Assembly: GCF_008727795.1 (NCBI RefSeq)
Contig: NZ_CP044222.1
Location: 3,632,686 to 3,696,685 of the forward strand
Reading direction: 5' to 3'
From: Nitrincola iocasae
GTDB lineage: Bacteria; Pseudomonadota; Gammaproteobacteria; Pseudomonadales; Balneatricaceae
Length of the DNA: 64,000 nucleotides
A model generated the notes under the pieces. It had not been told where the DNA came from. It was given only the letters and a program-made list of their open reading frames with translations, and ran no database searches. A program made the position numbers and the translations under genes. Shown here one piece after another: positions 18 through 63,296 of this stretch. Position 1 is the first letter of the stretch; each line of letters begins with the position of its first letter.

Positions 18-1049
18 ATGTTTGCCTCTCCGGCAGATATATCGGAGCACCGTTTTGTTTCTAAAACATCAAAAACACTTTCGAGTCATGGGTTGGCCAA
101 TGCACGCAAAATTCCTGCACTCAGCATACTTTTTGTTTGTATTGGATCGACCATCGGAAAAGTAGCGCAAAACGCCAATTATTGCGCTACAAATCAACAA
201 ATTAACTCAATTGTTCCATTTAATGGCTATGTTAAAAACTTTATTTACTACGCGTTATATTTTTACTCTACCAAGATAGCAGCGCTCGCTGGAAAGCAAG
301 CAGTACCTATTATCAATAAGTCTTTGTTTTCTTCTTCATCAATTCTTGTTCCGTCCAAGAAGGAAGAGCAACAAAAAATCGCCGACTGCCTATCATCCCT
401 CGATGAGCTGCTCGCTGCGCAGTCAGACAAAATCGACGTCCTCAAAACCCATAAAAAGGGGCTGATGCAACAACTCTTCCCTCGCGAAGGCGAAACCATC
501 CCACGCCTACGTTTTCCCGAGTTTCGGGATACGGAGGAGTGGGAGGAGAAGCTTCTTGGAAATATGTTATCTATAGGCAACGGGCGAGATCATAAACACC
601 TTCCTGATGGTGATATTCCAGTCTATGGAACTGGTGGTTATATGCGCTCGGTCAATGACTATCTTTATGAAGGTGAAAGCGTATGTATCGGTCGTAAAGG
701 AACAATCGACAAGCCAGTATTTCTTGTAGGTAAATTCTGGACTGTTGATACACTATTCTATACGTATGCATTTAAAAAATGCCTTCCGCGATTTGTATAT
801 TCTATATTCCAAAATATTGATTGGAAAAAACACAACGAAGCGGGCGGTGTTCCAAGTCTGTCTAAAGCAAATATCGAAAAAATAAAAGTTGCGGTACCTG
901 GAATAAAAGAACAACAAAAAATCGCCGATTGCCTATCATCTCTAGATGCTCTGATTACCGCACAGACGGAAAAAATCGATGCTCTCAAAACCCACAAAAA
1001 AGGGCTGATGCAGCAGCTCTTTCCCTCTATGGATGAGGTTGAAGCGTGA
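18..1049 (+). CDS. hsdS: Type I restriction-modification specificity subunit HsdS. The reading frame is open to the window start, so the 5' end may be partial.
   Basis: Two copies of the conserved HsdS coiled-coil region (EQQKIADCLSSLDxL..Q..KID.LKTHKKGLMQQLFP) separated by a variable target-recognition domain. The 120-bp internal direct repeats typical of hsdS are present. Confidence 0.85.
   Translation: MFASPADISEHRFVSKTSKTLSSHGLANARKIPALSILFVCIGSTIGKVAQNANYCATNQQINSIVPFNGYVKNFIYYALYFYSTKIAALAGKQAVPIINKSLFSSSSILVPSKKEEQQKIADCLSSLDELLAAQSDKIDVLKTHKKGLMQQLFPREGETIPRLRFPEFRDTEEWEEKLLGNMLSIGNGRDHKHLPDGDIPVYGTGGYMRSVNDYLYEGESVCIGRKGTIDKPVFLVGKFWTVDTLFYTYAFKKCLPRFVYSIFQNIDWKKHNEAGGVPSLSKANIEKIKVAVPGIKEQQKIADCLSSLDALITAQTEKIDALKTHKKGLMQQLFPSMDEVEA
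363..1029 (+). repeat. Two direct repeats of about 120 bp inside hsdS (about 363-483 and 909-1029).
   Basis: They are near-identical by eye and encode the two conserved HsdS spacer regions. Such repeats are classical substrates for target-recognition-domain reassortment. Confidence 0.8.
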
Positions 1050-3274
1050 TCACTAAAATCAACCGACTGAACAACTTTGCCAATTATCGACAATTTCAAT
1101 GGGGAGCCAACACCAACTTTACCAAACGAAACCTCATTTACGGTTGGAACTATTCGGGAAAGACAACACTTTCAAGGCTATTTCAAGTTCTGGAAGATCC
1201 AGGCGAGCTATCTCAATGGCAGGGGTGCCAATTCGATGTTGAGCTTCAAGACGGTAGAAGATTGACGCAAAGCAATCTTGCCAACACCCCGCGCGTTAAA
1301 GTCTTCAACCGCGATTTCATCCAAAGTAATTTCCAGCAAGAGCACAAAGCGCCGGCTGTATTCATCGTGGGCGGAAACACCATCCACTTGCGCAATCGCA
1401 TTACTCGCCTGAACGAAAGTGAGGCAAAAACAACCACTATCAAAAAAAAGCGAAACGATACTTACCAGCAGCTCATAAGGGAGCTTGATTCGCTTGGAAC
1501 AACGCATGCCCGTGCTGTTGCCACACTGACCGGCGACAAAACATATAACCGCACCAAACTGAATGTCGAAATAAACCGGATCAAAGCAACACCCCACACT
1601 TTTATCCTGACAGAGGATTGCCTCCAAGCCAAGGTATCACTGCTGCGCAGTACACAAGATTGGAAAAGCATCAATCAGGTAGCAAGCTTGGCAATCAACC
1701 TAGAGGCTTTGCGTCAGGAGCTCTCTGTTGTGCTGGAAAAGACGGCCACTAATGAGGCTATAGCTAAACTAAAAGAGAATCGTGAACTGGAGTCCTGGAT
1801 TCGTGCGGGTCTGACGCACCACACGGATTCTGCAGAATGCGAGTTTTGTGGTTCAGCTATCACTGATGAGCGACTGTCGACCTTGCAAAGACACTTTTCC
1901 AAAGCATATGAAGATTTGACATCAGAAGTGGCATCCCAATTGGCAAGGATTGAAAATACAGAGTTCATTATCACACTCCCTGACGAACGTGATTTCATGC
2001 CTGACCTCAAAGCGCCGTTTGCTTTGCTCAAATCAAGAATTACAGATTGGATTACTTGGGCCAATACTGTCATCGCCGAATTCACAACACTTGCTAAACA
2101 CAAGCAGCTATCCCTTGAATCACAAATTAGTTGTGCTGTGGATACTGGTCGAGCCTCTGAGATTACTCAAATCATTTTGGACATTAACTCGCTTGTCAAA
2201 ACTCACAATCAAAAGTGCATGCAAATTGAAAAAGAAAAAGTTGCCGCCAAAGATGCTATCGAAAAGCATCAAGCGGCGAGTTTTTATCAAAACAATAATA
2301 TTTCAGACAGAGAGGTAGAGATCCAAAAGGTCAATGACAAGGTAACTAAGGCCCAAAATTTATTGATGCGTATCGCCGGTAAAAAGGCTGCAATCGAAGT
2401 GCAGATTCAGCAGCAGTCCATCGCTGCACAAAAAATTGATGAAACGGTTCAGTTTCTTTTACCCGACAATAACATTTCAGTTGCAGAAGTACAGGGTGGT
2501 TCCTTTGAGTTCCGACGTGGTAGCTCGCTAGCCAATAATCTTAGCGAAGGCGAAAAAACTGCGATAACCTTCGCTTACTTTCTCACTACTCTTGAAAACA
2601 ATGGCTCATCATTGAGTCAGACCATCGTCTTCATCGACGACCCTATCTCAAGCCTAGATTCAAATCATATCTACGCCATTTACGCGTTGATCACCAAGCG
2701 GCTGGACCCGTGCCTGCAAATTTTCGTAGCCACTCATAACAACGAGCTTTACACTCTACTTAAAGACCACTGGTTCGAAGCAAGGCAACAGTTTTCCAAT
2801 CGAGATAATGCCTGCACATATTACACACGACGATTCCTTGATAGCGCCAATCACAAATGGAACTCAACGCTGGAAGATACTCCTGATCTACTGCGGAAAT
2901 ACAAATCTGAATATCAGTTTATTTTTGAACAGCTACATAAATTTTCATCATCTCAGGCTCCCTCGCTTCATGAGGCATACACTGCTCCCAACTTGCTGCG
3001 CAAATTTCTTGAAGCCTACCTCGGTTTCAAAAAACCGTGTATATCACAGTGGTCCAGAAAATTGGATCTGTTGTTTGACTCTGATATTAATCGGACTGAA
3101 ATACAAAAATTCTCAGATGATGCATCACACCTGCAAGGCTTAAATCGTGCACTGCAACAGCCAGACTTCATTTCCAATGCACAGAACACCGTCAAGAAGG
3201 TCCTTAAAGCTCTAAAAGACAAAGACCCCCAGCATTACACATCCATGTGCACCGTTATTGGCGTTACACCTTGA
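1046..3274 (+). CDS. RloC-like ABC-type ATPase with an inserted coiled-coil/CxxC zinc hook. Candidate anticodon nuclease.
   Basis: Walker A GWNYSGKTTLSRLF near the N-terminus. Long coiled-coil region with CEFCGS (CxxC hook). Walker B/D-loop IFIDDPISSLDSNH at about aa 527, followed by a C-terminal domain of about 200 aa. GTG start overlaps the hsdS stop. The architecture matches the RloC/PrrC family, which is known to sit inside type I R-M loci. Confidence 0.6.
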   Translation: MITKINRLNNFANYRQFQWGANTNFTKRNLIYGWNYSGKTTLSRLFQVLEDPGELSQWQGCQFDVELQDGRRLTQSNLANTPRVKVFNRDFIQSNFQQEHKAPAVFIVGGNTIHLRNRITRLNESEAKTTTIKKKRNDTYQQLIRELDSLGTTHARAVATLTGDKTYNRTKLNVEINRIKATPHTFILTEDCLQAKVSLLRSTQDWKSINQVASLAINLEALRQELSVVLEKTATNEAIAKLKENRELESWIRAGLTHHTDSAECEFCGSAITDERLSTLQRHFSKAYEDLTSEVASQLARIENTEFIITLPDERDFMPDLKAPFALLKSRITDWITWANTVIAEFTTLAKHKQLSLESQISCAVDTGRASEITQIILDINSLVKTHNQKCMQIEKEKVAAKDAIEKHQAASFYQNNNISDREVEIQKVNDKVTKAQNLLMRIAGKKAAIEVQIQQQSIAAQKIDETVQFLLPDNNISVAEVQGGSFEFRRGSSLANNLSEGEKTAITFAYFLTTLENNGSSLSQTIVFIDDPISSLDSNHIYAIYALITKRLDPCLQIFVATHNNELYTLLKDHWFEARQQFSNRDNACTYYTRRFLDSANHKWNSTLEDTPDLLRKYKSEYQFIFEQLHKFSSSQAPSLHEAYTAPNLLRKFLEAYLGFKKPCISQWSRKLDLLFDSDINRTEIQKFSDDASHLQGLNRALQQPDFISNAQNTVKKVLKALKDKDPQHYTSMCTVIGVTP

Positions 3275-3447
3275 TTTTTATATTTAACAAATTAGGAATT
3301 GAGTAAAACCATGATCAGTCGAGATCAAGAGAAATTAGGCAATACCCTGTGGGATAGGGTGGATTGTCTTTCCAACATCAACGAATACAAGATCCCAATA
3401 ACAGAACTGATGCTACAACCGTTACCCAGTTCAGAAGCTGTGAACCT

Positions 3448-4452
3448 ATGAATGAGCTGATCCTCTACACCACCGAAGACGGCCAAAGCCAAATACAATT
3501 ACGGGCTGATAATGGCACTGTCTGGCTTACTCAGTTGGAAATGGCGGAATTATTTCTGACCTCTAAGCAGAACATTGCCAAGCACCTTAAAGCCATCTTT
3601 TCCGAGGAAGAGTTAATCCAGGATTCAGTTGTCAACCACTGGTTGACAACTGCCGCTGACGGCAAGAGCTACCGCGTTGCGCATTATAACCTCGATGCCA
3701 TTCTGGCCGTAGGTTATCGGGTACGTTCACCGCGTGGAGTGCAGTTCCGCCGCTGGGCCAGCACAGTACTTAGCGAGTTCCTGCGCAAAGGCTTTGTGAT
3801 GGATGATGATCGACTCAAGAATCCTGATGGCCGTCCGGATTACTTCGATGAAATGCTGTCACGCATCCGGGATATTCGTGCCTCGGAAAAACGTTTTTAC
3901 CAAAAAGTGCGTGAACTATTTGCCCTTAGTAGTGATTACGATAAAACAGATAAAAGTACCCAGCAGTTTTTTGCTACTGTACAGAACTTGTTGCTCTATG
4001 CTGTTACCCAGAAGACCGCAGCCGAATTAATTACTGAGCGCGCCAATCCTGATGACTCACATTTTGGCCTGTTGAGCTGGAAGGGATCGAAAGTGCGCAA
4101 ACAAGATATTCTGATTGCCAAGAATTACTTGAACGAAGATGAAATAGATACCCTTAACCGGTTAGTGGTGATCTTCCTGGAAACCGCCGAGCTGCGTGCC
4201 AAGAGTCGTATCGAAACTCGCATGGCTTTCTGGCAGGCACGTGTTGGCGACATTATTAGTCAAAATGGCTTTCCGTTACTGACAGATGCTGGAACAATCA
4301 GCCATACACAGATGGAGCTAACCACCAGCGAACTCTACTCTGACTTTGATCAACGCCGAAAAGCACAAGAAGCGATCGTCGCTGATCAAACAGATGAAAC
4401 TGCGTTAAAAGCGCTGGAAGACAAACTCAAACGCAGACCGGGAGATAAATGA
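3448..4452 (+). CDS. rhuM: RhuM-family virulence/defence-island protein.
   Basis: N-terminus MNELILYTTEDGQSQIQLRADNGTVWLTQLEMAELF is typical of the RhuM family. Start chosen at the internal ATG at 3448 rather than the ORF-track start at 3364. The stop overlaps the next gene as ATGA. Confidence 0.75.
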   Translation: MNELILYTTEDGQSQIQLRADNGTVWLTQLEMAELFLTSKQNIAKHLKAIFSEEELIQDSVVNHWLTTAADGKSYRVAHYNLDAILAVGYRVRSPRGVQFRRWASTVLSEFLRKGFVMDDDRLKNPDGRPDYFDEMLSRIRDIRASEKRFYQKVRELFALSSDYDKTDKSTQQFFATVQNLLLYAVTQKTAAELITERANPDDSHFGLLSWKGSKVRKQDILIAKNYLNEDEIDTLNRLVVIFLETAELRAKSRIETRMAFWQARVGDIISQNGFPLLTDAGTISHTQMELTTSELYSDFDQRRKAQEAIVADQTDETALKALEDKLKRRPGDK

Positions 4453-5567
4453 GTAGCCAAACCTTTGAATTTGTCAGCTTGGCAAGTGTTGCTGAACATC
4501 TACGTGAAAAGCTTGAGCAGAAGAAATATGTTCTATTGTTCGCTTACAACGGGACAGGCAAAACACGCTTGTCCATGGCTTTTAAGGATCAGTGCAAGCA
4601 AGGCGAGGAGGAGTCAGCAGCCCGCGATACCTTATACTTCAACGCATTTACTGAAGACCTGTTCAATTGGGATAACGATCTGGATGGCAATTCACACCGA
4701 TTGCTTCGCATGAATACCGATTCACGTTTTTTTAGTGGCCTTCAAGAGCTGGAAATGGAAAACCGAATCCGCCCACTGTTACGCCGCTATGCGGATTTTG
4801 ATTTCTTCATCGATTACGAAATGAATGTGGTGAACTTTGTTCGTGAAGTGCCCTCTGTAGAAGGTACTGAAATGGTTGAGCACATTAAAGTTTCACGCGG
4901 CGAGGAAAATATCTTTATCTGGTGCTTTTTTCTCGCTGTCGCTCAATTGGCTGTGGACGAGCAAGAAGCCTATGATTGGGTGAAGTATCTCTATATCGAC
5001 GATCCCATTTCATCGTTAGACGACAACAATGCCATTGCGGTTGCCAGTCATTTGGCCCAGTTGCTAAAGGGAAGCAATGAGAAGATTCGAACTGTCATTT
5101 CCTCCCATCACCACCTGTTCTTTAATGTGATGTGTAATGAGTTAGGCAAAGCCGAAAAATACTTCCTGAGCAAAGAAGCAAGTAGTTACCTTTTGACTAA
5201 TACCGGTGAAACACCGCGCTACCATCATATTGCTTTGCTAAAACAGCTGCACAAGGTTGCTGAGTCTGGCGAGATTTACACTTACCATTTCAACATACTC
5301 CGAAGTATTTTAGAGAAAACAGCCACTTTTCATGGCTTCAAACATTTTTCAGATTGCATCAAGCAGGATAACGATGACTCTGATGGCATACTTCACACAC
5401 GACTGGTGAATGTGTTAAGCCATGGCAATTATTCCCTTTATGAGCCGCAGCAGATGTTGTCTGAAAACAAGGAATACTTCCGTAAAATTCTGCGGGGCTT
5501 TATGAACAACTACCGCTTTAACCCGGAACTTTTTCCGGTATCTGATCAAGAGAATGCGAATACATGA
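4449..5567 (+). CDS. PrrC-like short ABC-type ATPase. Possible anticodon nuclease or RhuM-associated AAA ATPase.
   Basis: Walker A AYNGTGKTRLS at aa 33 and Walker B/D-loop YLYIDDPISSLDDNN at about aa 184. Length 372 aa, about the size of PrrC. ATGA overlaps with rhuM upstream and hsdM downstream indicate translational coupling. Confidence 0.5.
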   Translation: MSSQTFEFVSLASVAEHLREKLEQKKYVLLFAYNGTGKTRLSMAFKDQCKQGEEESAARDTLYFNAFTEDLFNWDNDLDGNSHRLLRMNTDSRFFSGLQELEMENRIRPLLRRYADFDFFIDYEMNVVNFVREVPSVEGTEMVEHIKVSRGEENIFIWCFFLAVAQLAVDEQEAYDWVKYLYIDDPISSLDDNNAIAVASHLAQLLKGSNEKIRTVISSHHHLFFNVMCNELGKAEKYFLSKEASSYLLTNTGETPRYHHIALLKQLHKVAESGEIYTYHFNILRSILEKTATFHGFKHFSDCIKQDNDDSDGILHTRLVNVLSHGNYSLYEPQQMLSENKEYFRKILRGFMNNYRFNPELFPVSDQENANT

Positions 5568-7174
5568 CCAAAGAACAGCTCAGCCAATTAGGCAAAACCC
5601 TCTGGGGTATTGCCGACGACCTGCGCGGTGCAATGAACGCCGACGATTTTCGCGACTACATGTTGTCGTTTCTGTTTTTGCGCTACCTGTCTGATAATTA
5701 CGAAACGGCTGCCAAAAAAGAACTAGGGTCTGATTACCCTAAGCTGGAAAAAGAAGACCGTCGTGCACCCTTGGTAGTTTGGTATCAAGAGAATGCTGAG
5801 GATGTTGTTGAATTTGAAAAACAGATGCGCCGTAAGATGCACTATGTCATCCACCCGGATTACTTATGGAGCAGTATTGCCGAGCAGGCTCGCACCCAAA
5901 ATGCTGAATTGCTGCAAACCCTGGTACGCGGTTTCAAGTACATTGAAAACGAGTCTTTTGCCAGTACATTTCAGGGGTTGTTCTCGGAAATCAATTTACA
6001 TTCTGAAAAGCTGGGCAGAAGTGCAACTGATCGCAATAAAAAACTCTGCACTATCATTAGCAAGATCGCGGAAGGCATAGCTAAGTTTTCAACAGACAGC
6101 GATATGCTAGGCGATGCTTATGAGTACCTGATTGGCCAGTTTGCTGCGGGCTCAGGCAAGAAGGCCGGAGAATTTTATACACCGCAAACCGTCTCTACCA
6201 TTCTGTCTCGCATTGTCACCCTGGATAGCCAAGACCCCTCCACGGGTAAAAAGAAAAAGCTAAACCGTGTGCTGGACTTCGCTTGTGGCTCTGGTTCCCT
6301 GCTGTTGAATGTACGTAAACAGATGGGACCGCATGGCATCGGCATGATCTATGGCCAGGAAAAGAACATCACCACCTATAACCTTGCCCGCATGAACATG
6401 CTGCTACACGGCATGAAGGATACTGAGTTTGAAATCCATCATGGTGACACACTGGAAAACGATTGGGACATTCTTAATGAGATGAACCCGGCCAAGAAAC
6501 TCCAATGCGATGCTGTCGTGGCGAATCCACCCTTCAGCTACCGTTGGGAACCCAACGAGGTAATGGCTGAAGACTTCCGCTTCAAAAGCCACGGTCTTGC
6601 ACCTAAGTCTGCAGCAGACTTCGCCTTTTTGCTGCACGGCTTCCACTTCCTGAGCGACGAAGGCACCATGGCGATCATCCTACCCCACGGCGTATTGTTC
6701 CGGGGTGGCTCAGAAGCGCGAATTCGTACCAAATTGCTTAAGGATGGGCACATCGACACAGTAATTGGCTTGCCTGCCAATTTGTTTTTCTCCACCGGAA
6801 TCCCAGTCTGCATTCTGGTACTAAAAAAATGCAAAAAGCCGGATGATGTGCTTTTTATTAATGCCAGTAGCGAAGATAATTTTGAGAAAGGCAAACGGCA
6901 GAATTATTTACGGAAGGAAGATATCGACAAAATCATAGATACCTACCAATACCGTAAAGAAGCAGAGCGCTATGCTCGTCGAGTTAGCATGGCGGAGATA
7001 GAGAGGAATGACTACAACCTTAATATCACCCGCTATGTCAGCACGGCCAAAACCGAACCAGACATAGATCTGACAGCTGTTTATTCACAACTGACTGACT
7101 TAGAAGAGCGTATTGCCAAGGCTGCCGAGACACACAACAAATATTTGAAAGAGCTTGGCTTGCCGCCAGTATAA
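5564..7174 (+). CDS. hsdM: Type I restriction-modification DNA methyltransferase subunit HsdM.
   Basis: HsdM_N domain (LWGIADDLRGAMNADDFRDYMLSFLFLRYLSD). SAM motif I DFACGSGSLLL. Catalytic NPPF motif VVANPPFSYRW. Confidence 0.9.
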   Translation: MTKEQLSQLGKTLWGIADDLRGAMNADDFRDYMLSFLFLRYLSDNYETAAKKELGSDYPKLEKEDRRAPLVVWYQENAEDVVEFEKQMRRKMHYVIHPDYLWSSIAEQARTQNAELLQTLVRGFKYIENESFASTFQGLFSEINLHSEKLGRSATDRNKKLCTIISKIAEGIAKFSTDSDMLGDAYEYLIGQFAAGSGKKAGEFYTPQTVSTILSRIVTLDSQDPSTGKKKKLNRVLDFACGSGSLLLNVRKQMGPHGIGMIYGQEKNITTYNLARMNMLLHGMKDTEFEIHHGDTLENDWDILNEMNPAKKLQCDAVVANPPFSYRWEPNEVMAEDFRFKSHGLAPKSAADFAFLLHGFHFLSDEGTMAIILPHGVLFRGGSEARIRTKLLKDGHIDTVIGLPANLFFSTGIPVCILVLKKCKKPDDVLFINASSEDNFEKGKRQNYLRKEDIDKIIDTYQYRKEAERYARRVSMAEIERNDYNLNITRYVSTAKTEPDIDLTAVYSQLTDLEERIAKAAETHNKYLKELGLPPV

Positions 7175-9758: not shown

Positions 9759-10235
9759 ATGATTCGACTCACTGAAAAACTGGACAGCCCGCAACCGACT
9801 GATGTCAGCCTGAGCCTGAGTATCGATCAGCGTATCCGCAGCCGCCTCAAGGTGCAGCTGGATGATGGCCGTGATGCCGGACTGTTTCTGCCACGCGGTC
9901 TGATTCTGCGAGGTGGAGACTGCTTACGTAGCGAATGTGGGCTCATAGTGCTAGTGAAAGCCTCACCAGAAACCGTTTCAACCGTGCGTTGTGACGACAC
10001 TTTACTGTTAACTCGCGTGAGCTATCACCTGGGTAACCGCCATGTCCCCCTGCAGATAGCACTTGGTTTTGTGCGCTACCAGCATGACCATGTGCTGGAT
10101 GCCATGGTCGAGGGCCTGGGCGTGAGTGTGATCTGCGAACAACAACCCTTTGAACCCGAAGCCGGTGCTTATAGCAGTGAGAGCGGTCACCATCATGGTC
10201 ACAGCCATGCTCATGACCACTCGCATACGCATTAA
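9759..10235 (+). CDS. ureE: Urease accessory protein UreE with a His-rich C-terminal tail.
   Basis: Position in the operon and the C-terminal HHHGHSHAHDHSHTH nickel-binding tail. Confidence 0.9.
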   Translation: MIRLTEKLDSPQPTDVSLSLSIDQRIRSRLKVQLDDGRDAGLFLPRGLILRGGDCLRSECGLIVLVKASPETVSTVRCDDTLLLTRVSYHLGNRHVPLQIALGFVRYQHDHVLDAMVEGLGVSVICEQQPFEPEAGAYSSESGHHHGHSHAHDHSHTH

Positions 10236-10258
10236 TCTGACTGATAAAGGAACGTCCC

Positions 10259-10816
10259 ATGAAAACCACCTACACCTTCGCTATCACGGCCGCTCTGATG
10301 CTGGTTTCGCCCATGCTGCTGGCGCATTCCGGTCAGGATCACAGCCACAGCAGCTTTATTTCCGGCCTGCTGCATCCGCTCACCGGTCTTGACCACCTGA
10401 CCATGCTGTTGGGGATAGGCGCATTGGGCGCCTGGCAGTCGGTAAAACAACGTACCCAGTTGTATACCGGCACTTTAGGCATCCTGTTTGCCGGTGCGAT
10501 GCTGGGACTGCTGACTGGGTTTGGCACCGGAATCGAAGTGATGATTGTAGCCTCCATGTTCCTGATTGCTGTTGCGCTGTTCTTTGCCGCCCGTGGCCTG
10601 CTGCCGATGATCGCTGCACTGGCGCTGGTAATGTTCCACGGTTGGGCCCATGGACTGGAAATGCCCGCAGGCGGTGTCTTTACCTTTATGCCTGGCATGC
10701 TGATCATGGCGGCGCTGATCCTGGCGGCAGGCTTCGCCCTGGGTAAGACCTTTCAGCCCAAGTGGCTGGGCGCTGGCAGTGGTGCAGCGGCATTGTTGAT
10801 TACTCTGCTGGGTTAA
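10259..10816 (+). CDS. ureJ: HupE/UreJ-family nickel transporter.
   Basis: Signal peptide followed by an HSGQDHSHS His-rich motif and multiple TM helices. Embedded in the ure operon. Confidence 0.85.
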   Translation: MKTTYTFAITAALMLVSPMLLAHSGQDHSHSSFISGLLHPLTGLDHLTMLLGIGALGAWQSVKQRTQLYTGTLGILFAGAMLGLLTGFGTGIEVMIVASMFLIAVALFFAARGLLPMIAALALVMFHGWAHGLEMPAGGVFTFMPGMLIMAALILAAGFALGKTFQPKWLGAGSGAAALLITLLG

Positions 10817-10820
10817 TATC

Positions 10821-11486
10821 ATGCTACCCAGCCTGCGCCTCTATCAGCTCATCAGCCCCTCTTTGCCTATCGGTGCATTCACCTATTCGCAAGGCCTGGA
10901 GTGGGCCATAGAGGCGGGCTGGGTCACAGATCAGCCAAGCCTGTATGCCTGGCTGGAAAGTGTACTCAAGCACAGTGTCGGCACCCTGGAGTTACCGGTA
11001 TTAATCCGGCTGCATCAGGGTTTTGCACAGGCCGATAGCCAGCAGATCGATTACTGGTGCCAGTACCTCTGTGCCAGCCGGGAAACAGCCGAACTGCGTG
11101 CGGAAGAGTCGCAGCGCGGTAAGGCGTTAGCGGTATTGCTACCGTCGCTGGGCATAGAAATTCCGCCATCCAGTATCGATGCCGTCAAGTCGACACAGCT
11201 GGCGGGTATGGCGCTGGCCGCACAGCATTGGCAGATTCCGCTGGATGAGCTCTGCAGTGGCTACTTATGGAGCTGGCTGGAAAACAGCGTAATGGCGGGA
11301 GTTAAACTGGTGCCATTGGGGCAAACCAGCGGCCAGCAACTACTGCTCAGCCTGTCTGAAACCCTGCCCGAATTACAACAGCAAGCGCTGGCTATTACCG
11401 ATGAGTCCATAGCCGGTTGCACCCCGGCACTGGCCATCGCCAGCGCCTGCCATGAAACACAATATACGCGTTTATTTCGCTCCTAA
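10821..11486 (+). CDS. ureF: Urease accessory protein UreF.
   Basis: N-terminus LRLYQLISPSLPIGAFTYSQGLEWAIE is typical of UreF. Operon position. Confidence 0.85.
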   Translation: MLPSLRLYQLISPSLPIGAFTYSQGLEWAIEAGWVTDQPSLYAWLESVLKHSVGTLELPVLIRLHQGFAQADSQQIDYWCQYLCASRETAELRAEESQRGKALAVLLPSLGIEIPPSSIDAVKSTQLAGMALAAQHWQIPLDELCSGYLWSWLENSVMAGVKLVPLGQTSGQQLLLSLSETLPELQQQALAITDESIAGCTPALAIASACHETQYTRLFRS

Positions 11487-13000: not shown

Positions 13001-13231
13001 GTTATCTATCTGGCCCATAACAAAACACCTCCTCGAACACCCGCAGCCCCCCCTACCTGATACGCATCTTGTTGTGATTCATTACCCGGTACCAAACTCA
13101 CTTCATATTGTATTCAGGTGCGATATTTTACAAAAAAAGGGGTTTATTTTAGAATCGATAACCGGAGTGAAGTTAAAAGCCTCTGCAAGGATGTATAGCA
13201 GAGTGAATCATCAAGGAATAAGGAAATAAAG

Positions 13232-14011
13232 ATGCCCAGTCTGTTAGATCTCGCAAAAGCATGTGAAGCCAGTTATCAAAATATCCCGGAACTTGAAGGA
13301 TGGACAAGACTTCAGCGTTACGGCCCCCGAACCAGTGGTTTTTTTGGCGTACTTTTCAGGCGACAATTAGACAATGGTATTTTTGAGAATATTTTAGCCT
13401 ACCGTGGTACAGATGGCCTTCTGGATGGCGATATGGCCAGCAATCGTGACATTCTCCGCGGGCGCATGGTCAGGCAGTTCCCCGATGCATTTGCTGCACT
13501 ACGCGATGCGCTGGAAAGAAGTGAAGGTCATGTGCTTTATATCACTGGCCACTCCTTAGGGGGTGGTTTGGCTGCCCTGTGTTCTGTGGATAAATGGCGT
13601 CGAGGCAGGCGCGATTTGCCAACAGTCACGTTTAATGCCCCCGGCGTCACGCGAAGTGCGCGCCATTTGTGGGGCAAAGGCTCTGTGCGCTTTGCTCGAG
13701 ACCGTGTTATGAATGGGCTGGACACATATTACAATAGCCACCGAAAATCGCTGCATGTACAAACGGAAGGCGACCCAGTTGCCAATTTTGGTACACCGAC
13801 CATGCGGGAGTTATTAACTCTACCAAACCTGGCGTGTGAATCAAGAGCACGAGAAACGCTCCCCGAAACCCATCGTCATCGCTCAGAATTAGGCATGGTT
13901 CCCACACTGCAACTCAGAACCTATACAGCCCTGTGCGCGCATAGCATCCGTAACCTGGTGCAAGTCCTTGAACGTGATCCCATCTATCAGGAGCCTCTCG
14001 AATGGTCATAA
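13232..14011 (+). CDS. Class 3 lipase-like alpha/beta hydrolase (GHSLGG nucleophile elbow). Candidate toxin/effector.
   Basis: ITGHSLGGGLAAL serine nucleophile motif characteristic of lipase_3/DUF2974-type hydrolases. No signal peptide. The 3' end overlaps the downstream lipoprotein gene. Confidence 0.6.
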   Translation: MPSLLDLAKACEASYQNIPELEGWTRLQRYGPRTSGFFGVLFRRQLDNGIFENILAYRGTDGLLDGDMASNRDILRGRMVRQFPDAFAALRDALERSEGHVLYITGHSLGGGLAALCSVDKWRRGRRDLPTVTFNAPGVTRSARHLWGKGSVRFARDRVMNGLDTYYNSHRKSLHVQTEGDPVANFGTPTMRELLTLPNLACESRARETLPETHRHRSELGMVPTLQLRTYTALCAHSIRNLVQVLERDPIYQEPLEWS

Positions 14012-14727
14012 AATTTAAACGGCTATTGGTGCTGGGCAGCCTTACGCTTCTGCTCAGCGCCTGTCAGGAAGTCAGCACTGAACCTGGGGTTTCTGCAGGG
14101 GACTTAAGTGCCGCCTGTAAGGAGTTTAATGATGGCCTGGTGTATAACACTGAGTTTGCTCGGGTGTTTTCATTAGAGCCAGATGATGCGGTTGAGCTGG
14201 ACTCTGGCCTGATGGCCGTGAGAGTGTATTGGACGGAGATGATTAACTTTCCCGACTCTCCCAAAATGCAGATGCAGCTCTATTTAGAACCGAGCGTGAA
14301 CCTGCAATTTCCCAAAGATGAAGGCACCCATAATGGTATAGAAGCGCTGATACGCAGTGGTTTTCGATACTTTTCACATCGCCCTTATGCTTATCCTGAT
14401 AATAACGATGAATTCAATTTTCGCTATGTGATTCAGGATGGTGATGAGCTGATGTCAGCCTATCTCTATCGCTACCGTACTAATCTGACCAGTACAGGCA
14501 TTCAAGCCATTGAGCTAGGCACAACATTTCGAAGGAACCCGGTGGTGTATTTGTATATTGGTGAAGAGCCAGTTGATCGAAGACGAGACTCACTATTAGC
14601 GAATGACTTGTCTCAGGGAAAGCGGCATAACCCTGATGAGTTTTTAAAGCTGCGTATCCCGTCTGAATTGCAGTCAGTCATGCAATCTCCTTATCGCCCT
14701 TGTCAGGGAACGACTGCGCAGCGATGA
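14002..14727 (+). CDS. Lipoprotein, copy 1 of a tandem paralogue pair. Candidate immunity protein.
   Basis: Lipobox LLLSAC after a hydrophobic leader. Nearly identical over most of its length to the next ORF. Confidence 0.6.
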   Translation: MVIKFKRLLVLGSLTLLLSACQEVSTEPGVSAGDLSAACKEFNDGLVYNTEFARVFSLEPDDAVELDSGLMAVRVYWTEMINFPDSPKMQMQLYLEPSVNLQFPKDEGTHNGIEALIRSGFRYFSHRPYAYPDNNDEFNFRYVIQDGDELMSAYLYRYRTNLTSTGIQAIELGTTFRRNPVVYLYIGEEPVDRRRDSLLANDLSQGKRHNPDEFLKLRIPSELQSVMQSPYRPCQGTTAQR

Positions 14728-15490
14728 ACCTACTCAATTTAGCAAAGCCGTCTGTACGGCTTTTAATCTTAAACTGTCTTACCCTCCTGCTCAGTGCCTG
14801 CCAGGAGGCAAGTACTGAGCCTGATCTTGCCGTTGCTACTACCGACCACAATGCAGCAGTAAGCACAACGACCTGCCAGGAATTTAACGACGGCCTGATA
14901 TATAACGCTGAATTTGCTCGGGTGTTTTCATTAGAGCCAGATGATGCGGTTGAGTTAGACCCTGGTTTGATGGCCGTGAGAGTGTATTGGACGGAGATGA
15001 TTAACTTTCCCGACTCTCCCAAAATGCAGATGCAGCTCTATTTAGAACCGAGCGTGAACCTGCAATTTCCCAAAGATGAAGGCACACATAATGGTATAGA
15101 AGCGCTGGTACGCAGTGGCTTTCGATATTTTTCTCACAGGTCGCCAGGGTATGACCGAAGTAACGATGAATTCAATTTTCGTTATGTGATTCAAGATGGT
15201 GATGAGTTGATGTCTGCCTATCTTTACCGCTATCGCACCAATCTCACAAGTTCAGGCATTCAAGCCATTGAGTTAGGTACAACGTTTCGAAGGAACCCGG
15301 TGGTGTATTTGTATATTGGTGAAGAGCCTCCACCTGATAATAGGCAAAACTTAGGTGCCCTTCAGCACGGTTTGGCGGCTGGGCAATCACATGATCCTGC
15401 TCGCTATCTCAAGCTGCATATTCCATCAGAATTGCAGCCCGCTATGCAGTCTCCTTACCGCCCTTGCCAGGGAACAACTGCGCAGCGATG
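14050..15490 (+). repeat. Tandem duplication with a period of about 759 bp covering the two lipoprotein genes.
   Basis: Long near-identical stretches, for example GCTCGGGTGTTTTCATTAGAGCCAGATGATGCGGTTGAG at 14157 and 14916. The ends are divergent. Confidence 0.85.
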
Positions 15491-15491
15491 A
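14724..15491 (+). CDS. Lipoprotein, copy 2 of the tandem paralogue pair.
   Basis: Start chosen at MNLLNL (ATGA overlap with copy 1). Lipobox LLLSAC. Shares long identical nucleotide stretches with copy 1 at a period of about 759 bp. Confidence 0.6.
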   Translation: MNLLNLAKPSVRLLILNCLTLLLSACQEASTEPDLAVATTDHNAAVSTTTCQEFNDGLIYNAEFARVFSLEPDDAVELDPGLMAVRVYWTEMINFPDSPKMQMQLYLEPSVNLQFPKDEGTHNGIEALVRSGFRYFSHRSPGYDRSNDEFNFRYVIQDGDELMSAYLYRYRTNLTSSGIQAIELGTTFRRNPVVYLYIGEEPPPDNRQNLGALQHGLAAGQSHDPARYLKLHIPSELQPAMQSPYRPCQGTTAQR

Positions 15492-15560
15492 GTTCACTCA
15501 ATTTAGCAGAGCCGTCTGAGCATCTTAAACACCGACTCGATAGCACAGAAATGCGTTGCC
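15484..15560 (+). pseudogene. Truncated third-copy junction remnant of the lipoprotein tandem array.
   Basis: Reproduces the copy-1/copy-2 junction (TTAQR-stop overlapping an ATG plus an LNLA.PS leader). It then diverges into sequence antisense to the EamA gene. Confidence 0.35.
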
Positions 15561-15586: not shown

Positions 15587-16504
15587 TCATACCGAGGCTT
15601 TTATATCAGACGGCTTTACAGCGCGGTGCCACAGGGTCGTTTTTATAAACATCACCGCATTGCCGATCAAAATCATGACCAGACCGGCCAAGGCTGGGAG
15701 GGTCCAGACATATCCTTCATAGAAGGTTGAAATACCGAGTGCGACCAACGGAAACAGCAAGGTGGCGTAGGCGGCGGGTCCAGCCCCTATCCGCCCTATC
15801 AGAGCAAAGTAGGCACCGAAGCCAATAACCGAACCGAAAATCGCCAGATAAAACAATGCGCCCAGATAGCTCATACGGGTATCCAGCACGAAGGGCGTAC
15901 CGCTGACCAACACAATACACAACAGCGTCAGGGCTCCATAACTCATGGCGTAGGCATTGGTGGATAGCAGATCCAGGCCTTTTCGCTGGTGACGCAAACT
16001 GATCATATTGCCCAGCGAAAAACCATAGGTACCCAGCAAGGCGCATCCCATGCCGAAAAACACCTCCAGGTCCAGTTGCTCACCACTGAGATCTGGCCAG
16101 AACAACAGCAGCATACCTGACAGGCCCAGGCCATTGGCCAGATAGATACGCGGGGTAATCGTTACCCGGAAGAACAACGCACTGTTGACCGCGTTAAACA
16201 GTACCGCCATGGAAAACACCACCGAGATTAGGCCCGAGGTGATGTACTGAGTGGCGGTGTAGAACAACAAAAAATTGAAGCAAAAGACACACATACCTTG
16301 CAGCAGGCAAAACAGGTGATCCCTGGTGCCAATGCGTCGCAGCCTCCCTGATAGCACCAGACAGATTAGCAATGTCGCACCAGCCAGGGCAAAACGGTAG
16401 AAAACCGACAAGGCCACAGGAACCTCGCCCAGTTGAAAGGCAATGGCAATCCAGGTAGTGCCCCAAATCAGTACAGTGGTGATATAGAGTATGGCATTCA
16501 TCAA
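15587..16504 (-). CDS. EamA/DMT-family transporter.
   Basis: Ten predicted TM helices and a duplicated EamA-like architecture. Confidence 0.8.
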   Translation of the reverse strand: MMNAILYITTVLIWGTTWIAIAFQLGEVPVALSVFYRFALAGATLLICLVLSGRLRRIGTRDHLFCLLQGMCVFCFNFLLFYTATQYITSGLISVVFSMAVLFNAVNSALFFRVTITPRIYLANGLGLSGMLLLFWPDLSGEQLDLEVFFGMGCALLGTYGFSLGNMISLRHQRKGLDLLSTNAYAMSYGALTLLCIVLVSGTPFVLDTRMSYLGALFYLAIFGSVIGFGAYFALIGRIGAGPAAYATLLFPLVALGISTFYEGYVWTLPALAGLVMILIGNAVMFIKTTLWHRAVKPSDIKASV

Positions 16505-28919: not shown

Positions 28920-29573
28920 ATGAAAAAACCAAAAACATCAGCCGACTACCAACGTGAGTATCGCAAACGTCTACGCGATCAAGGCCTAGTTAAAAAGGAG
29001 GTATGGATTCATCCGAACCACGCTAGGATTTTGTCTCAATACGAGCAGGTTTTTCGCAACCCTTTGATTACTAGCGGTAAAACATGCAATACCCAACTTA
29101 AGGAAATAGAGGTAAGTATGAACAAAAAGAACACATGGACTACACATTCTCTGTTTGAAGCCCTGCTTGAAACAGAAATGGTGTCGTCGAATCAAGCTAG
29201 TATAAAGCTGGAAGAGAGTACAAAAGCAACGATCCACATGGTATTGCATTCCATGGGAGATCTTCCTGTTTATGTTACCGTCGCCGGTGAACAGATTCTG
29301 GCTGAAAGTCTTTTATGGCCCCAGGATATGGTTAATGATGTCGTGGCCTTCAATGATGAAGTTCTCGTTACCCATAAAATTTTCCCCCTATCGACAATCA
29401 GTCTGGATACCTTACCGACAGGTGAGCGTTATTACACCATGTTCGGCGCGCTGAGTGCTTTTTCATCACTCTTCGATGTTGTTTTTGAAATTGAGTTATT
29501 AGCAGACAATGTCATCAAGGCAGCGGATGCCTATTCAAAATTCTTGCCTAGTCAAATGATGGTGGAGGTGTAG
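28920..29573 (+). CDS. Hypothetical protein with a basic N-terminal region. First gene of the PspA-associated array, possibly a YjfI/DUF2170-like PspA partner.
   Basis: Open frame immediately followed (1-nt gap) by the PspA-family gene. There is an internal ATG at 29118 with a strong GAGG Shine-Dalgarno sequence, so the true start is uncertain. Confidence 0.5.
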   Translation: MKKPKTSADYQREYRKRLRDQGLVKKEVWIHPNHARILSQYEQVFRNPLITSGKTCNTQLKEIEVSMNKKNTWTTHSLFEALLETEMVSSNQASIKLEESTKATIHMVLHSMGDLPVYVTVAGEQILAESLLWPQDMVNDVVAFNDEVLVTHKIFPLSTISLDTLPTGERYYTMFGALSAFSSLFDVVFEIELLADNVIKAADAYSKFLPSQMMVEV

Positions 29574-29574
29574 C

Positions 29575-30282
29575 ATGGCCGTATGGAGTAAGTTAATGAC
29601 AGCTTTGCGTGGCAATGCTAATGCGCTCGGTGAGTCCATAGTCGACAGCCAGGCAATGGTGATACTGGATGAAGAGATTCGCAATGCCGGGACAGAGCTT
29701 AATCAAGCCAAACTCGCTTTAGCAGAAATCATGGCCAAGCACCGTGTTGCAACTGATAAGCTAACGGTGCTTAAAGGCCAGGTTACAGAGTATGAAGACT
29801 ATGCACTTGCCGCACTGGAAAAAGGCAAAGAAGACTTAGCACAAGAAGTGGCCCTAAAAATTGCCAATATTGAAACTGAATTAGCGCAACAGCAAGAAAT
29901 CGTCGATCACTACGGTAAAAGTGTTGATCAACTGCGCACTGCTGTCCAATCTGCAGAAGGTAACTTAAAGCGCTTACGTCAACAAGCCGATACGGTGCTT
30001 GCTACTGAGTCGGTTCAACGCGCCCAAGCCGCCGTTGCCAGCCGCTATGCCGGCGGTCAAGCCAAGTTACAAACCGCTATGGATTCGCTGGAGCGAATTA
30101 AAATGAAACAAGCCGAAAATGCGGCCAGAATGGAATCTGCTCAGGAATTAGAAGCCGAAAGTCGAGGCGATGTGTTAACCGAAAAATTACGAGCAGCCGG
30201 TATTACGCCACAGGAAACAAGCGCTACCAATGTTCTAAATCGGTTAAAGGAAAAACAACAAACCAAGCAGAATAATGCTTAA
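29575..30282 (+). CDS. pspA: PspA/IM30-family protein (phage-shock protein A / Vipp1 / ESCRT-III superfamily).
   Basis: MAVWSKLMTALRGNANALGESIVDSQAMVILDEEIRNA is the PspA-family N-terminus. The 235-aa protein is entirely coiled coil. Confidence 0.85.
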   Translation: MAVWSKLMTALRGNANALGESIVDSQAMVILDEEIRNAGTELNQAKLALAEIMAKHRVATDKLTVLKGQVTEYEDYALAALEKGKEDLAQEVALKIANIETELAQQQEIVDHYGKSVDQLRTAVQSAEGNLKRLRQQADTVLATESVQRAQAAVASRYAGGQAKLQTAMDSLERIKMKQAENAARMESAQELEAESRGDVLTEKLRAAGITPQETSATNVLNRLKEKQQTKQNNA

Positions 30283-30321
30283 AATATAGATTAAGCGATC
30301 ATTCAATAGGAGTAATTAACA

Positions 30322-30963
30322 ATGGACGTTTTTATTTTAATTATTGCCAGCTATCCCGTGGCAGTTTTTACTTCTCTCCTATTGGTAGTTGTAATCTACT
30401 GGTTAATAGCAATTCTCGGATTAATTGATATTGACACTCTGGATCTCCCAGAGATCGATGCTGATGCAGAACTTGATAGCCTGGAAGGGTTAACAGGTGT
30501 TGCGGGCTTTCTTATAAAGCTTGGCTTTCAGGGAATTCCGGTGATGGTTATATTGAGTCTACTGACACTGGTAGCCTGGTGGACTTCCTATTTTTGTGTC
30601 TGGCTACTTCCTTTTGCTTTAAATGGCATTTGGAAATTGGTATTAGGCACTGCCATCTTAATCACTTCCTTTATTTTTGCGCTCTTGATCACTCGATTTT
30701 TAGTGATCCCTTTAAAGCCGCTATTTAGAAAAAACACAGCAAGAAGCAAGAGAAGTTTTTTAGGCCAAGCTGTTGTCATACGAAGCTCCCGCGTTGACGA
30801 GCATTTCGGACAAGCTGAGTTCAACGATGCTGGAGCCGGTTTGATCTTAAATATTCGTGCAAAAACACCCAATCAGCTCAAAAAAAATGATCGTGTCATA
30901 CTACTTGAATACCTTGAAAAAGATCATGTCTATCTGGTAATCCCCGAAAGGGACTTTTATTAA
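30322..30963 (+). CDS. yqiJ: YqiJ/NfeD-like inner-membrane protein (DUF1449-like). Flotillin partner.
   Basis: N-terminal TM helices plus a C-terminal soluble OB-like domain. Located directly upstream of the YqiK-like flotillin, as in the E. coli yqiJK pair. Confidence 0.6.
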   Translation: MDVFILIIASYPVAVFTSLLLVVVIYWLIAILGLIDIDTLDLPEIDADAELDSLEGLTGVAGFLIKLGFQGIPVMVILSLLTLVAWWTSYFCVWLLPFALNGIWKLVLGTAILITSFIFALLITRFLVIPLKPLFRKNTARSKRSFLGQAVVIRSSRVDEHFGQAEFNDAGAGLILNIRAKTPNQLKKNDRVILLEYLEKDHVYLVIPERDFY

Positions 30964-30980
30964 AAAATTGGAGAATTAGA

Positions 30981-33020: not shown

Positions 33021-33099
33021 GGCGGCGTAAATAGCATCAATTTATTAAACAGCGCTTAGCTTAGGCTGAGCGCTGCTCATCTAGCAAACCATAAGGATA

Positions 33100-57645: not shown

Positions 57646-58425
57646 TCAGGTCTTACGTATTGAGCCTATATGATCACGCAACACATGTACCTGAGAAGCA
57701 AAGTTCTCGGTATAGGTATCTTCTAAAGAGCGAGGGCGCGGCAGATCAACTTCACGTCTGGCCAGAATCTGACCGGGCCCTTTACTCATGACATAGACGG
57801 TATCCGCTAAAAATACCGCTTCACGCAGATCATGTGTCACCAGAACGACGGTAAAGGGCTGCTCTTGCCAAAGCGACTGCAGCATGCACCAGAGCTCTTC
57901 CCGGGTAAAAGCATCCAGTGCGCCAAAAGGCTCATCAAGCATCAGCAGTTCCGGCTTGTGAATCAACGCACGGCAGATGGAGGCACGCTGCTGCATACCA
58001 CCCGAAAGCTCCCAGGGATATTTATCTTCCCAGCCCTTCAAGCCGACCCGCTCCAAAAGTGCGCGCGCCATCTCTTCAAAGGTCTTACGTTGGCGGCGTA
58101 ACTGTGAACGGTAGGGCTGCACAATTTCCAGTGGCAACATAACGTTCTGCAGGGTTGTCCGCCAAGGCAAAAGATTAGATGCCTGAAACGCCATACCAAT
58201 ACACTTTTGCGGCCCGTCAACCTGACGCCCATTCAGATAGACATATCCGGACGTCGGCTCAGAGAGTCCTGAAACCAGTTTCATCAGAGTTGATTTACCG
58301 CAACCCGAAGGCCCAACAACCGCAATAAACTCATTCTTTTTTACTGATAATGAAACATCCTGGATGGCCAGCGGTCCACCCTCATCATAGGCCAGACTAA
58401 CCTTTTCACAGGTTACAAACTCCAT
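57646..58425 (-). CDS. ABC transporter ATP-binding protein (NitT/TauT family).
   Basis: Walker A GPSGCGKST, ABC signature LSGGMQQR and Walker B LLMLDE. Confidence 0.85.
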   Translation of the reverse strand: MEFVTCEKVSLAYDEGGPLAIQDVSLSVKKNEFIAVVGPSGCGKSTLMKLVSGLSEPTSGYVYLNGRQVDGPQKCIGMAFQASNLLPWRTTLQNVMLPLEIVQPYRSQLRRQRKTFEEMARALLERVGLKGWEDKYPWELSGGMQQRASICRALIHKPELLMLDEPFGALDAFTREELWCMLQSLWQEQPFTVVLVTHDLREAVFLADTVYVMSKGPGQILARREVDLPRPRSLEDTYTENFASQVHVLRDHIGSIRKT

Positions 58426-58486
58426 AGAGCATCCTCAAGAAACCACGACAGGACTTGCCCAACCTCAGGCCAGGCAAGCTAGTTAA

Positions 58487-59536: not shown

Positions 59537-59772
59537 TAGAATCACCTTTTAATCTGAAGTGACCAGATATCTGGTCACTTAGGTCAATTTAGTAGTTAAC
59601 AGGTGGTCAGCAGCAATGCGGCTCTCACATGCAATACTAAAAACTGACCAGTTAGTCAGAATATAGCAATCCTTATGCCAGCTTTTTAGGTGCTAACGAC
59701 CTATCAATGACCATTTTACTGCACCGAAATAAAGCATAACAGATAGTGACTACCTCAAAAGGTGCGCCCGGC

Positions 59773-61020: not shown

Positions 61021-61063
61021 CAGGACATTATGACCCGAACTTGGCCGTGGTATAGATTCAGTT

Positions 61064-63217: not shown

Positions 63218-63296
63218 ACGCTGCTGATTAAACTTTCCGCTATGTTATGCTGTCTGTGTATATGAATTTATCTGCATTTAAACTAAGGATGATGGA

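Follow-up and report, generated by a model that had tools for sequence, protein, structure and literature searches.

A candidate lipase effector/immunity cassette with tandem lipoprotein genes in Nitrincola iocasae

We analyzed a three-gene locus in Nitrincola iocasae, located in a stretch of 64,000 nucleotides (the window; positions 3,632,686 to 3,696,685 of the forward strand of contig NZ_CP044222.1, assembly GCF_008727795.1). Three genes on the plus strand, encoding a lipase and two lipoproteins in tandem, make up the locus. The original prediction, made from the nucleotide sequence without database searches, was that the locus is an effector/immunity cassette similar to those of the type VI lipase effectors (Tle) and their immunity proteins (Tli). 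Our analyses support this view, and we estimate a probability of about 0.68 that the cassette is a horizontally acquired effector/immunity module with its own promoter that functions in interbacterial antagonism. The support comes from the pairing of lipase and lipoprotein genes, from relatives located next to tssA and tssB, genes of a type VI secretion system (T6SS), from fusions of the lipase domain to carrier proteins, from variation in chromosomal site and copy number within Nitrincola, and from lipase pseudogenes.

The lipase gene, encoding a stand-alone protein of 259 amino acids (aa) and putative toxin, is at 13232-14011. The first lipoprotein gene (copy 1, 14002-14727; 241 aa, starting with MVIKFKRLLVLGSLTLLLSAC) overlaps the end of the lipase gene by exactly 10 nt (ATGGTCATAA), and there is an AGGAG 8 nt 5' of its ATG. 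By virtue of this overlap, copy 1 is predicted to be translationally coupled to the lipase. The second lipoprotein gene (copy 2, 14724-15491; 255 aa, starting with MNLLNLAKPSVRLLILNCLTLLLSAC) has its ATG at 14724, sharing an ATGA with the stop codon of copy 1. Copy 1 is a putative periplasmic immunity protein and copy 2 a second putative immunity paralog. Another ATGA is found at the stop codon of copy 2 and is followed by approximately 40 nt that resemble the start of a copy-2-type gene, reading MSSLNLAEPSEHL compared to MNLLNLAKPSVRL at the N-terminus of copy 2. The third, truncated lipoprotein copy that had been proposed is therefore real, and consists only of those approximately 40 nt of a 5' end. 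The right border of the cassette is approximately at this plus-strand remnant, which is placed at approximately 15488-15530 by a direct repeat (D3, described below) and the junction alignment. An 88-aa open reading frame (ORF) that had been listed at the third copy is not a gene; it is antisense and runs into the neighboring EamA transporter gene. The similarity to lipoprotein genes stops about 60 nt before this convergent gene (15587-16504, minus strand). An identical arrangement is present on a 583-kb public metagenome contig, for which the gene caller gives the same three genes, including the 255-aa copy 2.

Several lines of evidence identify the first protein as a lipase. It matched the Pfam family Lipase_3 (PF01764) with 34.3 bits (cutoff 22; E = 2.6e-8), and Lipase_3, Mbeg1-like and generic hydrolase families were the only Pfam matches at E ≤ 1. 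The family PF26363 ('Phospholipase-like') is on record for the lipase on the public contig and for homologs, and was absent from the results of our own hmmscan. The nucleophile elbow, TGHSLGGGLA, contains Ser108, and the other members of the predicted catalytic triad are Asp181 and His237 (within LCAHS). In the alignment of the family (A1), YRGTD, TGHSLGG, VTFNAPG and Asp181 are invariant. Of the 19 sequences reaching the region of His237 (LCxHS), all but one have this residue, and it is also found in domains that are fused to carrier proteins. The AlphaFold2 model (mean pLDDT of 81.8) had feruloyl esterase A and fungal class-3 lipases as its top Foldseek matches in the PDB (E = 1.5e-8, TM-score of about 0.45). 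As judged from the model, the protein is a class-3 lipase with an alpha/beta-hydrolase fold. Its N-terminus is hydrophilic, and residues 4-13 form a helix of the fold that was modeled with confidence (pLDDT about 95), so there is no signal peptide and no room for a delivery domain. The 259-aa lipase with a GHSLGG motif, no signal peptide and a 10-nt overlap, as originally described, was thus confirmed at 13232-14011. Values of dN/dS were 0.06-0.11 relative to the orthologous cassettes at two other Nitrincola loci, and the lipase is under purifying selection.

The segment of the lipase directly before the catalytic histidine (aa 196-234) is hypervariable and was modeled with low confidence. A pair of cysteines, C202 and C235, was considered as a possible sign of a periplasmic disulfide and then dropped. 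The pair is kept only in the clade of Nitrincola, Rheinheimera and two other loci (L009 and L012); neither the T6SS-linked clade nor the fusion proteins have it.

The two lipoproteins are 79% identical and have the same lipobox, LLSAC; the signal peptide of copy 2 differs from that of copy 1 and ends in the same lipobox. We found three direct repeats in this region (D1-D3; 265 nt with 93% identity, 168 nt with 91% identity, and 129 nt with 80% identity, the last being D3, which pairs 14626-14754 with 15390-15518). They are spaced 758-764 nt apart and are far beyond what is expected by chance, bearing out the earlier description of two tandem, lipobox-bearing paralogs with a period of about 759 bp. 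Divergence between the two copies is patchy. Core segments are nearly identical and have dS values of 0.24-0.58 and dN/dS values of 0.015-0.12 (0.19 overall), and three segments (the signal peptide and linker, about aa 125-140, and about aa 190-215) are synonymously saturated. In these three segments, the ancestry of copy 2 differs from that of copy 1, and the two copies are recombinational mosaics and not a simple recent duplicate. Both are under purifying selection and have been kept functional. The segment at about aa 190-215 (approximately 25 residues) has about three allelic forms that are common to several Nitrincola species. It may form one side of an interface of which the variable lipase segment (aa 196-234) is the other; there was no simple correlation between the variants of the two segments.

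Relatives of the lipoproteins are rare. A HMMER search of 1.84 billion representative proteins gave only 52 relatives (clusters) at E ≤ 1e-3. About two thirds of these have a lipobox-like motif, and about half have the pattern VYxxxFAxRF directly after the linker. The core of the protein is predicted to consist of beta-strands. The lipoproteins had no match in Pfam, including Lif-type and ankyrin families, and no relative in the PDB. None of the three cassette proteins was matched by a defense model of PADLOC (E ≤ 0.01). We conclude that the lipoprotein family is previously undescribed and uncatalogued; the lipase domain is already catalogued (Lipase_3, PF26363).

The pairing of the two types of gene extends beyond Nitrincola. 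Close homologs of the lipase and the lipoproteins were found only in Nitrincola. Lipases with 28-37% identity are directly followed by a homologous partner, nearly always with a lipobox, and the two genes usually overlap or abut. This is the case at three metagenome loci (with BLASTP E-values of 1e-11 and 1e-8 for the partner) and, among the matches listed in a search with hidden Markov models (HMMs), in Rheinheimera pacifica, a Chromatiales symbiont, and metagenome-assembled genomes (MAGs) of Woeseiaceae, Thioalkalispiraceae and Rhodocyclaceae. The Thioalkalispiraceae locus has two tandem lipoprotein copies. There were 19 further cassettes with the same gene order in metagenomes from the Joint Genome Institute, with few exceptions that were mostly at contig ends. 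Among 12 pairs that were examined, eight have lipase and partner genes that overlap by 1-10 nt; in six of the eight, the overlap is exactly 10 nt. The lipoproteins diverge faster than the lipases, with mean identities of 27% and 40%, respectively.

Some of the distant loci have unusual arrangements. One 193-kb metagenome contig (L117) has two oppositely oriented cassettes with about 8 kb between them (762-2461 and 10001-11389). On another contig (L134, 3005-14193), a lipoprotein homolog (371-406 aa) is directly 5' of a gene whose 3312-aa product includes the lipase domain. A gene for a bacterial RNase A-like toxin, accompanied by a CdiI_2 immunity gene and a fragment of IS66, is located about 2.5 kb from a distant cassette (L012, 5298-6932), and these surroundings constitute a small toxin/immunity island. 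P0023 and other small Mbeg1-like lipases are found beside type I secretion system (T1SS) genes; this is a different and more distant arrangement.

Relatives of the lipase are linked to secretion systems in two ways, by gene neighborhood and by fusion. On four Woeseiaceae-like contigs (L020, L107, L109, L113), the gene order is lipase, partner, tssA, tssB. The tssA and tssB genes were identified by Pfam (ImpA_N, 1.6e-30; VipA, 2.8e-57) and by tblastn. At another locus (L136), a small lipase that occurs alone has a PAAR gene about 1.5 kb downstream. Carrier-fused relatives were retrieved with the N-terminal half of the lipase at 30-40% identity, and the 259-aa lipase can be aligned over its whole length to the C-terminal domains of VgrG, Rhs and two-partner secretion (TPS) fusion proteins. 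The domain is a C-terminal extension of VgrG in Terasakiispira (L036), Byssovorax (L023) and, twice, Chondromyces (L033, L093). It is at the C-terminus of Rhs proteins in Muribaculaceae (L088) and Pirellulaceae (L029) and of a TpsA-type protein in Erythrobacter (L034). It is also found in a protein with PAAR and DUF6531 in Thiothrix (L065), in a Luteibacter protein with the type IV secretion system (T4SS) effector signal XVIPCD (L069), and in RTX proteins (L058, L053). This spread over carriers of type I, IV, V and VI systems is the pattern of a polymorphic toxin domain. A small ORF, often with a lipobox, is located downstream of the carrier-fused domains. In the carrier-fused relatives examined, this position was not occupied by a member of the Nitrincola lipoprotein family. 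Unrelated lipoproteins follow the VgrG-lipase of Terasakiispira (L036, 10597-11322) and the Rhs-lipase of Pirellulaceae (L029, 10205-10996). The myxobacterial VgrG-lipases (L023, L033) are followed by proteins of about 220 aa that look cytoplasmic and have N-termini resembling ankyrin repeats, and these would fit pairs of the Tle6 type.

Within Nitrincola, the six cassette loci that were examined are in six different chromosomal contexts. In the window, the cassette is located between ureD and eamA. In N. tibetensis (L001), it is flanked by two TacA/TacT pairs; in MINF-07-Sa-05, it is between an AraC gene and a gene for a protein with a beta-lactamase fold; and in N. lacisaponensis 4CA (L003), it is between selO and a DUF599 gene. 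One N. lacisaponensis MAG has two cassettes, one between dxs and ribA and one between an SNF2-PLD helicase gene and a DUF2064 gene. In each case, the lipase or lipase remnant is followed by one or two lipoprotein genes; the MINF-07-Sa-05 locus has a second lipoprotein gene 5' of the lipase. The GC content of the cassette in the window is 0.45-0.53, compared to 0.55-0.59 in the adjoining urease accessory genes just upstream (ureE, ureJ, ureF, ureG, ureD). No integrase or transposase accompanies the Nitrincola cassettes at the examined loci, and no terminal repeats or target-site duplications were found at the cassette borders. In its variable location, its own promoter, its GC content and its neighbors, the cassette behaves like an accessory module, and it was probably acquired horizontally. 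The neighbors of Nitrincola and distant cassettes are often toxin-antitoxin (TA), restriction-modification (RM) or toxin genes. Examples are RES-Xre and SNF2-PLD genes near one of the two MAG cassettes (L005), hsdR near another cassette (L009), and, in the window, hsdM, which is located about 6 kb upstream. In N. tibetensis, a piece of a lipoprotein gene (L001, 8811-8927; about 39 codons, with 64% identity to copy 2) is present upstream of the cassette and close to a gene for a TacT acetyltransferase, and suggests an earlier, larger array or a rearrangement.

At two of the Nitrincola loci, the lipase gene has decayed. In N. lacisaponensis 4CA, the lipase is frameshifted and lacks residues from about 127 to 202, including Asp181, and the lipoprotein genes downstream are intact. 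In one of the two MAG cassettes (L005), the lipase is frameshifted and lacks residues from about 186 to 244, including His237, and the lipoprotein genes are again intact. Loss of the lipase with retention of the lipoproteins is what an effector/immunity model predicts and is the opposite of what is expected for a chaperone. A lipoprotein without a toxin partner had been named in advance as evidence against the model. These two loci are technically of that kind, but the partner is present as a lipase pseudogene, and they support the model instead of refuting it.

The cassette probably carries its own promoter. We found a sigma-70-type sequence, TTTACA-17 nt-TAGAAT (13127-13155, plus strand), with 10 of 12 matches in a promoter scan. 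Both hexamers and the spacing are kept 5' of the lipase in Nitrincola cassettes at four sites (the window, L001, L003 and L007). Similarity between the Nitrincola loci begins at this promoter, which serves as the approximate left border of the cassette, spans the leader, and stops just past the stop codon of the last lipoprotein gene. The Shine-Dalgarno region of the lipase, AAGGAATAAGGA, is at about 13213-13224. Directly 5' of it, on the same strand, there is a hairpin, CTCTGC-N11-GCAGAG (13181-13203), which is kept in all six of the aligned Nitrincola cassettes; one of these (L002) has a two-sided change (CCGC...GCGG). We considered an RNA element in the leader and dropped it, as the hairpin had no match in Rfam and its fold was no more stable than that of shuffled sequence (z = 0.1). 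The hairpin could be a protein-binding palindrome or an element of translational control.

We propose the following mechanism. The 259-aa lipase would represent a polymorphic-toxin lipase domain in free-standing form. Lacking a signal peptide, it would be synthesized in the cytoplasm and passed to a contact-dependent export machine, most likely a T6SS, as a cargo effector. After delivery to the periplasm of neighboring Gram-negative cells, it would hydrolyze membrane phospholipids there. The two coupled lipoproteins would be exported by the Sec and Lol pathways, anchored in the periplasm, and would bind and neutralize lipase coming in from sister cells. The second, mosaic paralog would probably widen the protection to variant lipases.

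Several findings weigh against this proposal. The lipase has no recognizable delivery or adaptor domain, and the lipoprotein matches no known immunity fold. Adjacency to T6SS genes is limited to one clade, whose lipases are about 30% identical to that of Nitrincola, and the closest relatives outside Nitrincola are also orphans. The absence of a visible VgrG gene or secretion apparatus, stated in the original prediction, holds for the parts of the window that were checked, which had no gene for a T6SS, contact-dependent inhibition (CDI), a T4SS or any other export system. This check consisted of tblastn with TssA, TssB and VgrG, Pfam searches with most of the large ORFs, and the gene table for about 3.2-24 kb; it did not include a query for Hcp or a scan of 57646-63977. 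A literature search found nothing relevant on T6SS in Nitrincola. Finally, the co-divergence of lipase and partner outside Nitrincola is weak and, after removal of redundancy, not significant (Pearson 0.39, Spearman 0.13). A mirror-tree comparison over all pairs gave a Pearson coefficient of 0.85 that was driven by the Nitrincola pairs, and we did not use it as evidence of co-evolution.

Other explanations of the locus share some of these observations. The pair could be an effector and its immunity protein that are delivered without a T6SS, by lysis, by vesicles or by another contact-dependent system, or could be a spare module that is joined by recombination to a carrier gene at another place in the genome. 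That no T6SS gene was found in the checked parts of the window fits this possibility, as does the fact that the protein is nothing more than a toxin domain. The occurrence of the domain family on carriers of the T1SS (RTX), T4SS (XVIPCD), type V (TPS) and T6SS also fits, since it indicates that the family is not tied to one machine. However, the promoter, the Shine-Dalgarno sequence and the ATG start are conserved across genera, indicating that the lipase is made as a free protein and does not serve as a silent spare for recombination. In addition, T6SS clusters and a PAAR gene are the only genes to which a direct linkage of the small, free-standing form was seen. We consider delivery by another route, or a role as a spare module, unlikely. 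Less likely still is that the lipase is a housekeeping or physiological enzyme that works with its own periplasmic protein (for example a foldase, an anchor or a regulator) in remodeling of envelope lipids or acquisition of nutrients, an alternative that had been raised in the original prediction as a lipase-specific partner family. Tight translational coupling does suggest joint production, all three genes are under purifying selection, and the fold of the lipoprotein is uninformative. But within the producing cell, a lipase that lacks a signal peptide would not come into contact with a partner in the periplasm, and the loss of the lipase where the partner is kept also disfavors this explanation. 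The lipoprotein has no Lif-type or other Pfam match, the cassette is at a different locus in each genome, can be present more than once and does not belong to conserved operons, and the homologous domains are the toxin tips of VgrG and Rhs proteins.

It is also conceivable, with a very low probability, that the cassette functions inside the cell as an addiction or abortive-infection module, in which a suicide lipase that disrupts membranes is restrained or activated by the cytosolic precursor of the lipoprotein. The location of cassettes next to TA and RM genes (L001, L005, L009, and the hsdM upstream in the window) is consistent with such a module, and activation of Tle in Enterobacter cloacae requires a cytosolic form of Tli (bioRxiv 10.1101/2023.03.28.534661). 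The evidence from neighborhoods is weak, however, because variable islands collect accessory genes of all kinds, and PADLOC gave no match. The presence of a lipobox in about two thirds of the lipoprotein family indicates that export normally separates the partner from a cytoplasmic lipase, and the carrier fusions and the adjacency to tssA-tssB point to exported toxins. A related scenario, which we regard as quite improbable, is that Nitrincola has no T6SS and that the cassette stands alone, as a module with no need for a dedicated secretion machine. The lipase might then exit by an unrecognized route. Alternatively, the cassette might be an addiction or suicide system split between compartments, with the lipoprotein precursor activating or restraining the lipase by analogy to Tli and Tle in E. 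cloacae. If either were true, the spread of the cassette to many sites without a mobility gene would reflect selfish maintenance and not use as a weapon. We favor the effector/immunity module for antagonism between bacteria.

Among the known systems closest to the cassette is the Tle-Tli pair of E. cloacae (PDB 7UBZ and 9CYS), which is homologous to Slp of Serratia marcescens. A profile of the lipase family had the E. cloacae T6SS lipase effector (7ubz_B) as its best sequence match in the PDB (E = 2.8e-7), although the match is confined to about 85 residues around the nucleophile and is barely better than the match to fungal lipases (2.5e-6). The single lipase sequence had no match in the PDB, 7UBZ was not in the top 50 Foldseek matches, and the sequence relationship to Tle6 is weak. 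Both lipases have an alpha/beta-hydrolase fold and a nucleophile elbow and lack a signal peptide, and in both systems the gene directly downstream encodes an immunity protein that is a periplasmic lipoprotein, putatively so in Nitrincola. Tli is a periplasmic lipoprotein, and a 'Tle6' group has been proposed for this effector (PMC11470151; bioRxiv 10.1101/2023.03.28.534661). Lipase domains related to E. cloacae Tle are fused to VgrG, PAAR, Rhs and CdiA (PMC11470151; bioRxiv 10.1101/2023.03.28.534661), similar to the relatives of the Nitrincola lipase. The cytosolic form of the lipoprotein Tli is needed for activation of Tle (bioRxiv 10.1101/2023.03.28.534661), and an ankyrin-repeat immunity protein is described as invariable for Tle6 (PMC11470151). 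There are also clear differences. E. cloacae Tle has an N-terminal domain that links it to VgrG, whereas the Nitrincola protein is a lipase domain from residue 1 onward. Tli is all-helical, with ankyrin repeats, whereas the Nitrincola partner is predicted to be rich in beta-strands and has no ankyrin match. The acidic residue of the triad is Glu in E. cloacae Tle and Asp in the Nitrincola lipase.

We also compared the cassette to the other families of T6SS lipases. Families Tle1-Tle5, T6SS phospholipases with periplasmic Tli immunity proteins, were reportedly defined by Russell and colleagues in 2013. Examples are Tle1 of enteroaggregative Escherichia coli with the outer-membrane lipoprotein Tli1, TseL and TsiV1 of Vibrio cholerae (Tle2), and PldB of Pseudomonas aeruginosa with three tandem immunity genes. 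These systems follow the same logic as the cassette, with a GxSxG lipase that has no signal sequence, an adjacent and often tandem set of immunity genes whose products are targeted to the periplasm, and action from the periplasmic side. Unlike the Nitrincola lipase, the Tle1-Tle5 proteins are larger (>400 aa) and are encoded beside vgrG, hcp or adaptor genes. Tle1, Tle3, Tle4 and Tle5 have DUF2235, DUF3274, PGAP1-like and dual-HKD phospholipase D (PLD) domains, respectively, and Tle2 is similar to Lipase_3. The HMM assignment that had been suggested for the hydrolase gave Lipase_3 above the cutoff, and Pfam detected none of the domains of Tle1, Tle3, Tle4 or Tle5 in the Nitrincola lipase. Among the named families compared (Tle1 and Tle3-Tle6), there is none of which the lipase is a demonstrable member.

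Similarities to other kinds of systems are more general. Polymorphic toxins use carriers such as VgrG, Rhs, CdiA/TpsA, X-Tfe (XVIPCD) and RTX proteins, on which the lipase domain family is found, and orphan modules and retained immunity genes likewise occur in Nitrincola. Unlike orphan toxin fragments, the Nitrincola lipase is encoded by a complete gene, apparently with its own promoter, that is conserved in free-standing form across genera and is not a 3' fragment that has lost its carrier. The lipase toxin TslA of Staphylococcus aureus, a substrate of the type VII secretion system (T7SS), has tandem DUF576 lipoprotein immunity genes. As in the cassette, a lipase toxin is countered by tandemly amplified, membrane-anchored lipoproteins; unlike the cassette, TslA belongs to a Gram-positive T7SS, and its lipoproteins are of an unrelated family. 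The only sequence link is a weak, domain-level match of the Nitrincola lipase to the NCBIfam 'SA1320 family' (26.9 bits compared to a cutoff of 230), a family that may be different from TslA. In the Lif operons of Pseudomonas and Burkholderia, the lipase has a Sec signal and the foldase is helical and anchored in the inner membrane. These operons resemble the cassette in having two genes, for a lipase and then for a partner anchored in the envelope. They differ from it in that the Nitrincola lipase has no signal peptide and its partner is a lipoprotein with no Pfam match that is predicted to be rich in beta-strands.

The remainder of the window contains genes for urea and purine catabolism, transporters, a type I RM cluster and a cluster with PspA and DUF3686. 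The type I RM-like cluster (18-7174; AAA_13 ATPases, RhuM and an HsdM methylase) is directly upstream of the urease operon, which places the lipase cassette about 6 kb from an island of the defense type. The PspA cluster (28920-38055) is co-directional and encodes a DUF2170 protein (28920-29573), PspA/IM30 (29575-30282), proteins of 213 aa and 679 aa with no Pfam match, and a 1651-aa protein with DUF3686, DUF7902 and an AAA ATPase domain (33100-38055), followed by an SLT_2 lytic transglycosylase. Two large proteins of this cluster were tested against PADLOC, with no match.

If the cassette is an effector/immunity module, then it would represent a further group of lipase effectors together with a wholly new, beta-rich family of immunity proteins, marked by VYxxxFAxRF and comprising about 50 sequence clusters. 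The general picture of effector/immunity biology would be unchanged. The catalog available for annotating interbacterial weapons in environmental genomes would be extended, and the cassette would be a compact system for asking how a toxin domain without a delivery tag is loaded for export, why immunity genes outlive their toxins, and how two-gene cassettes move between chromosomal sites without a mobility gene.

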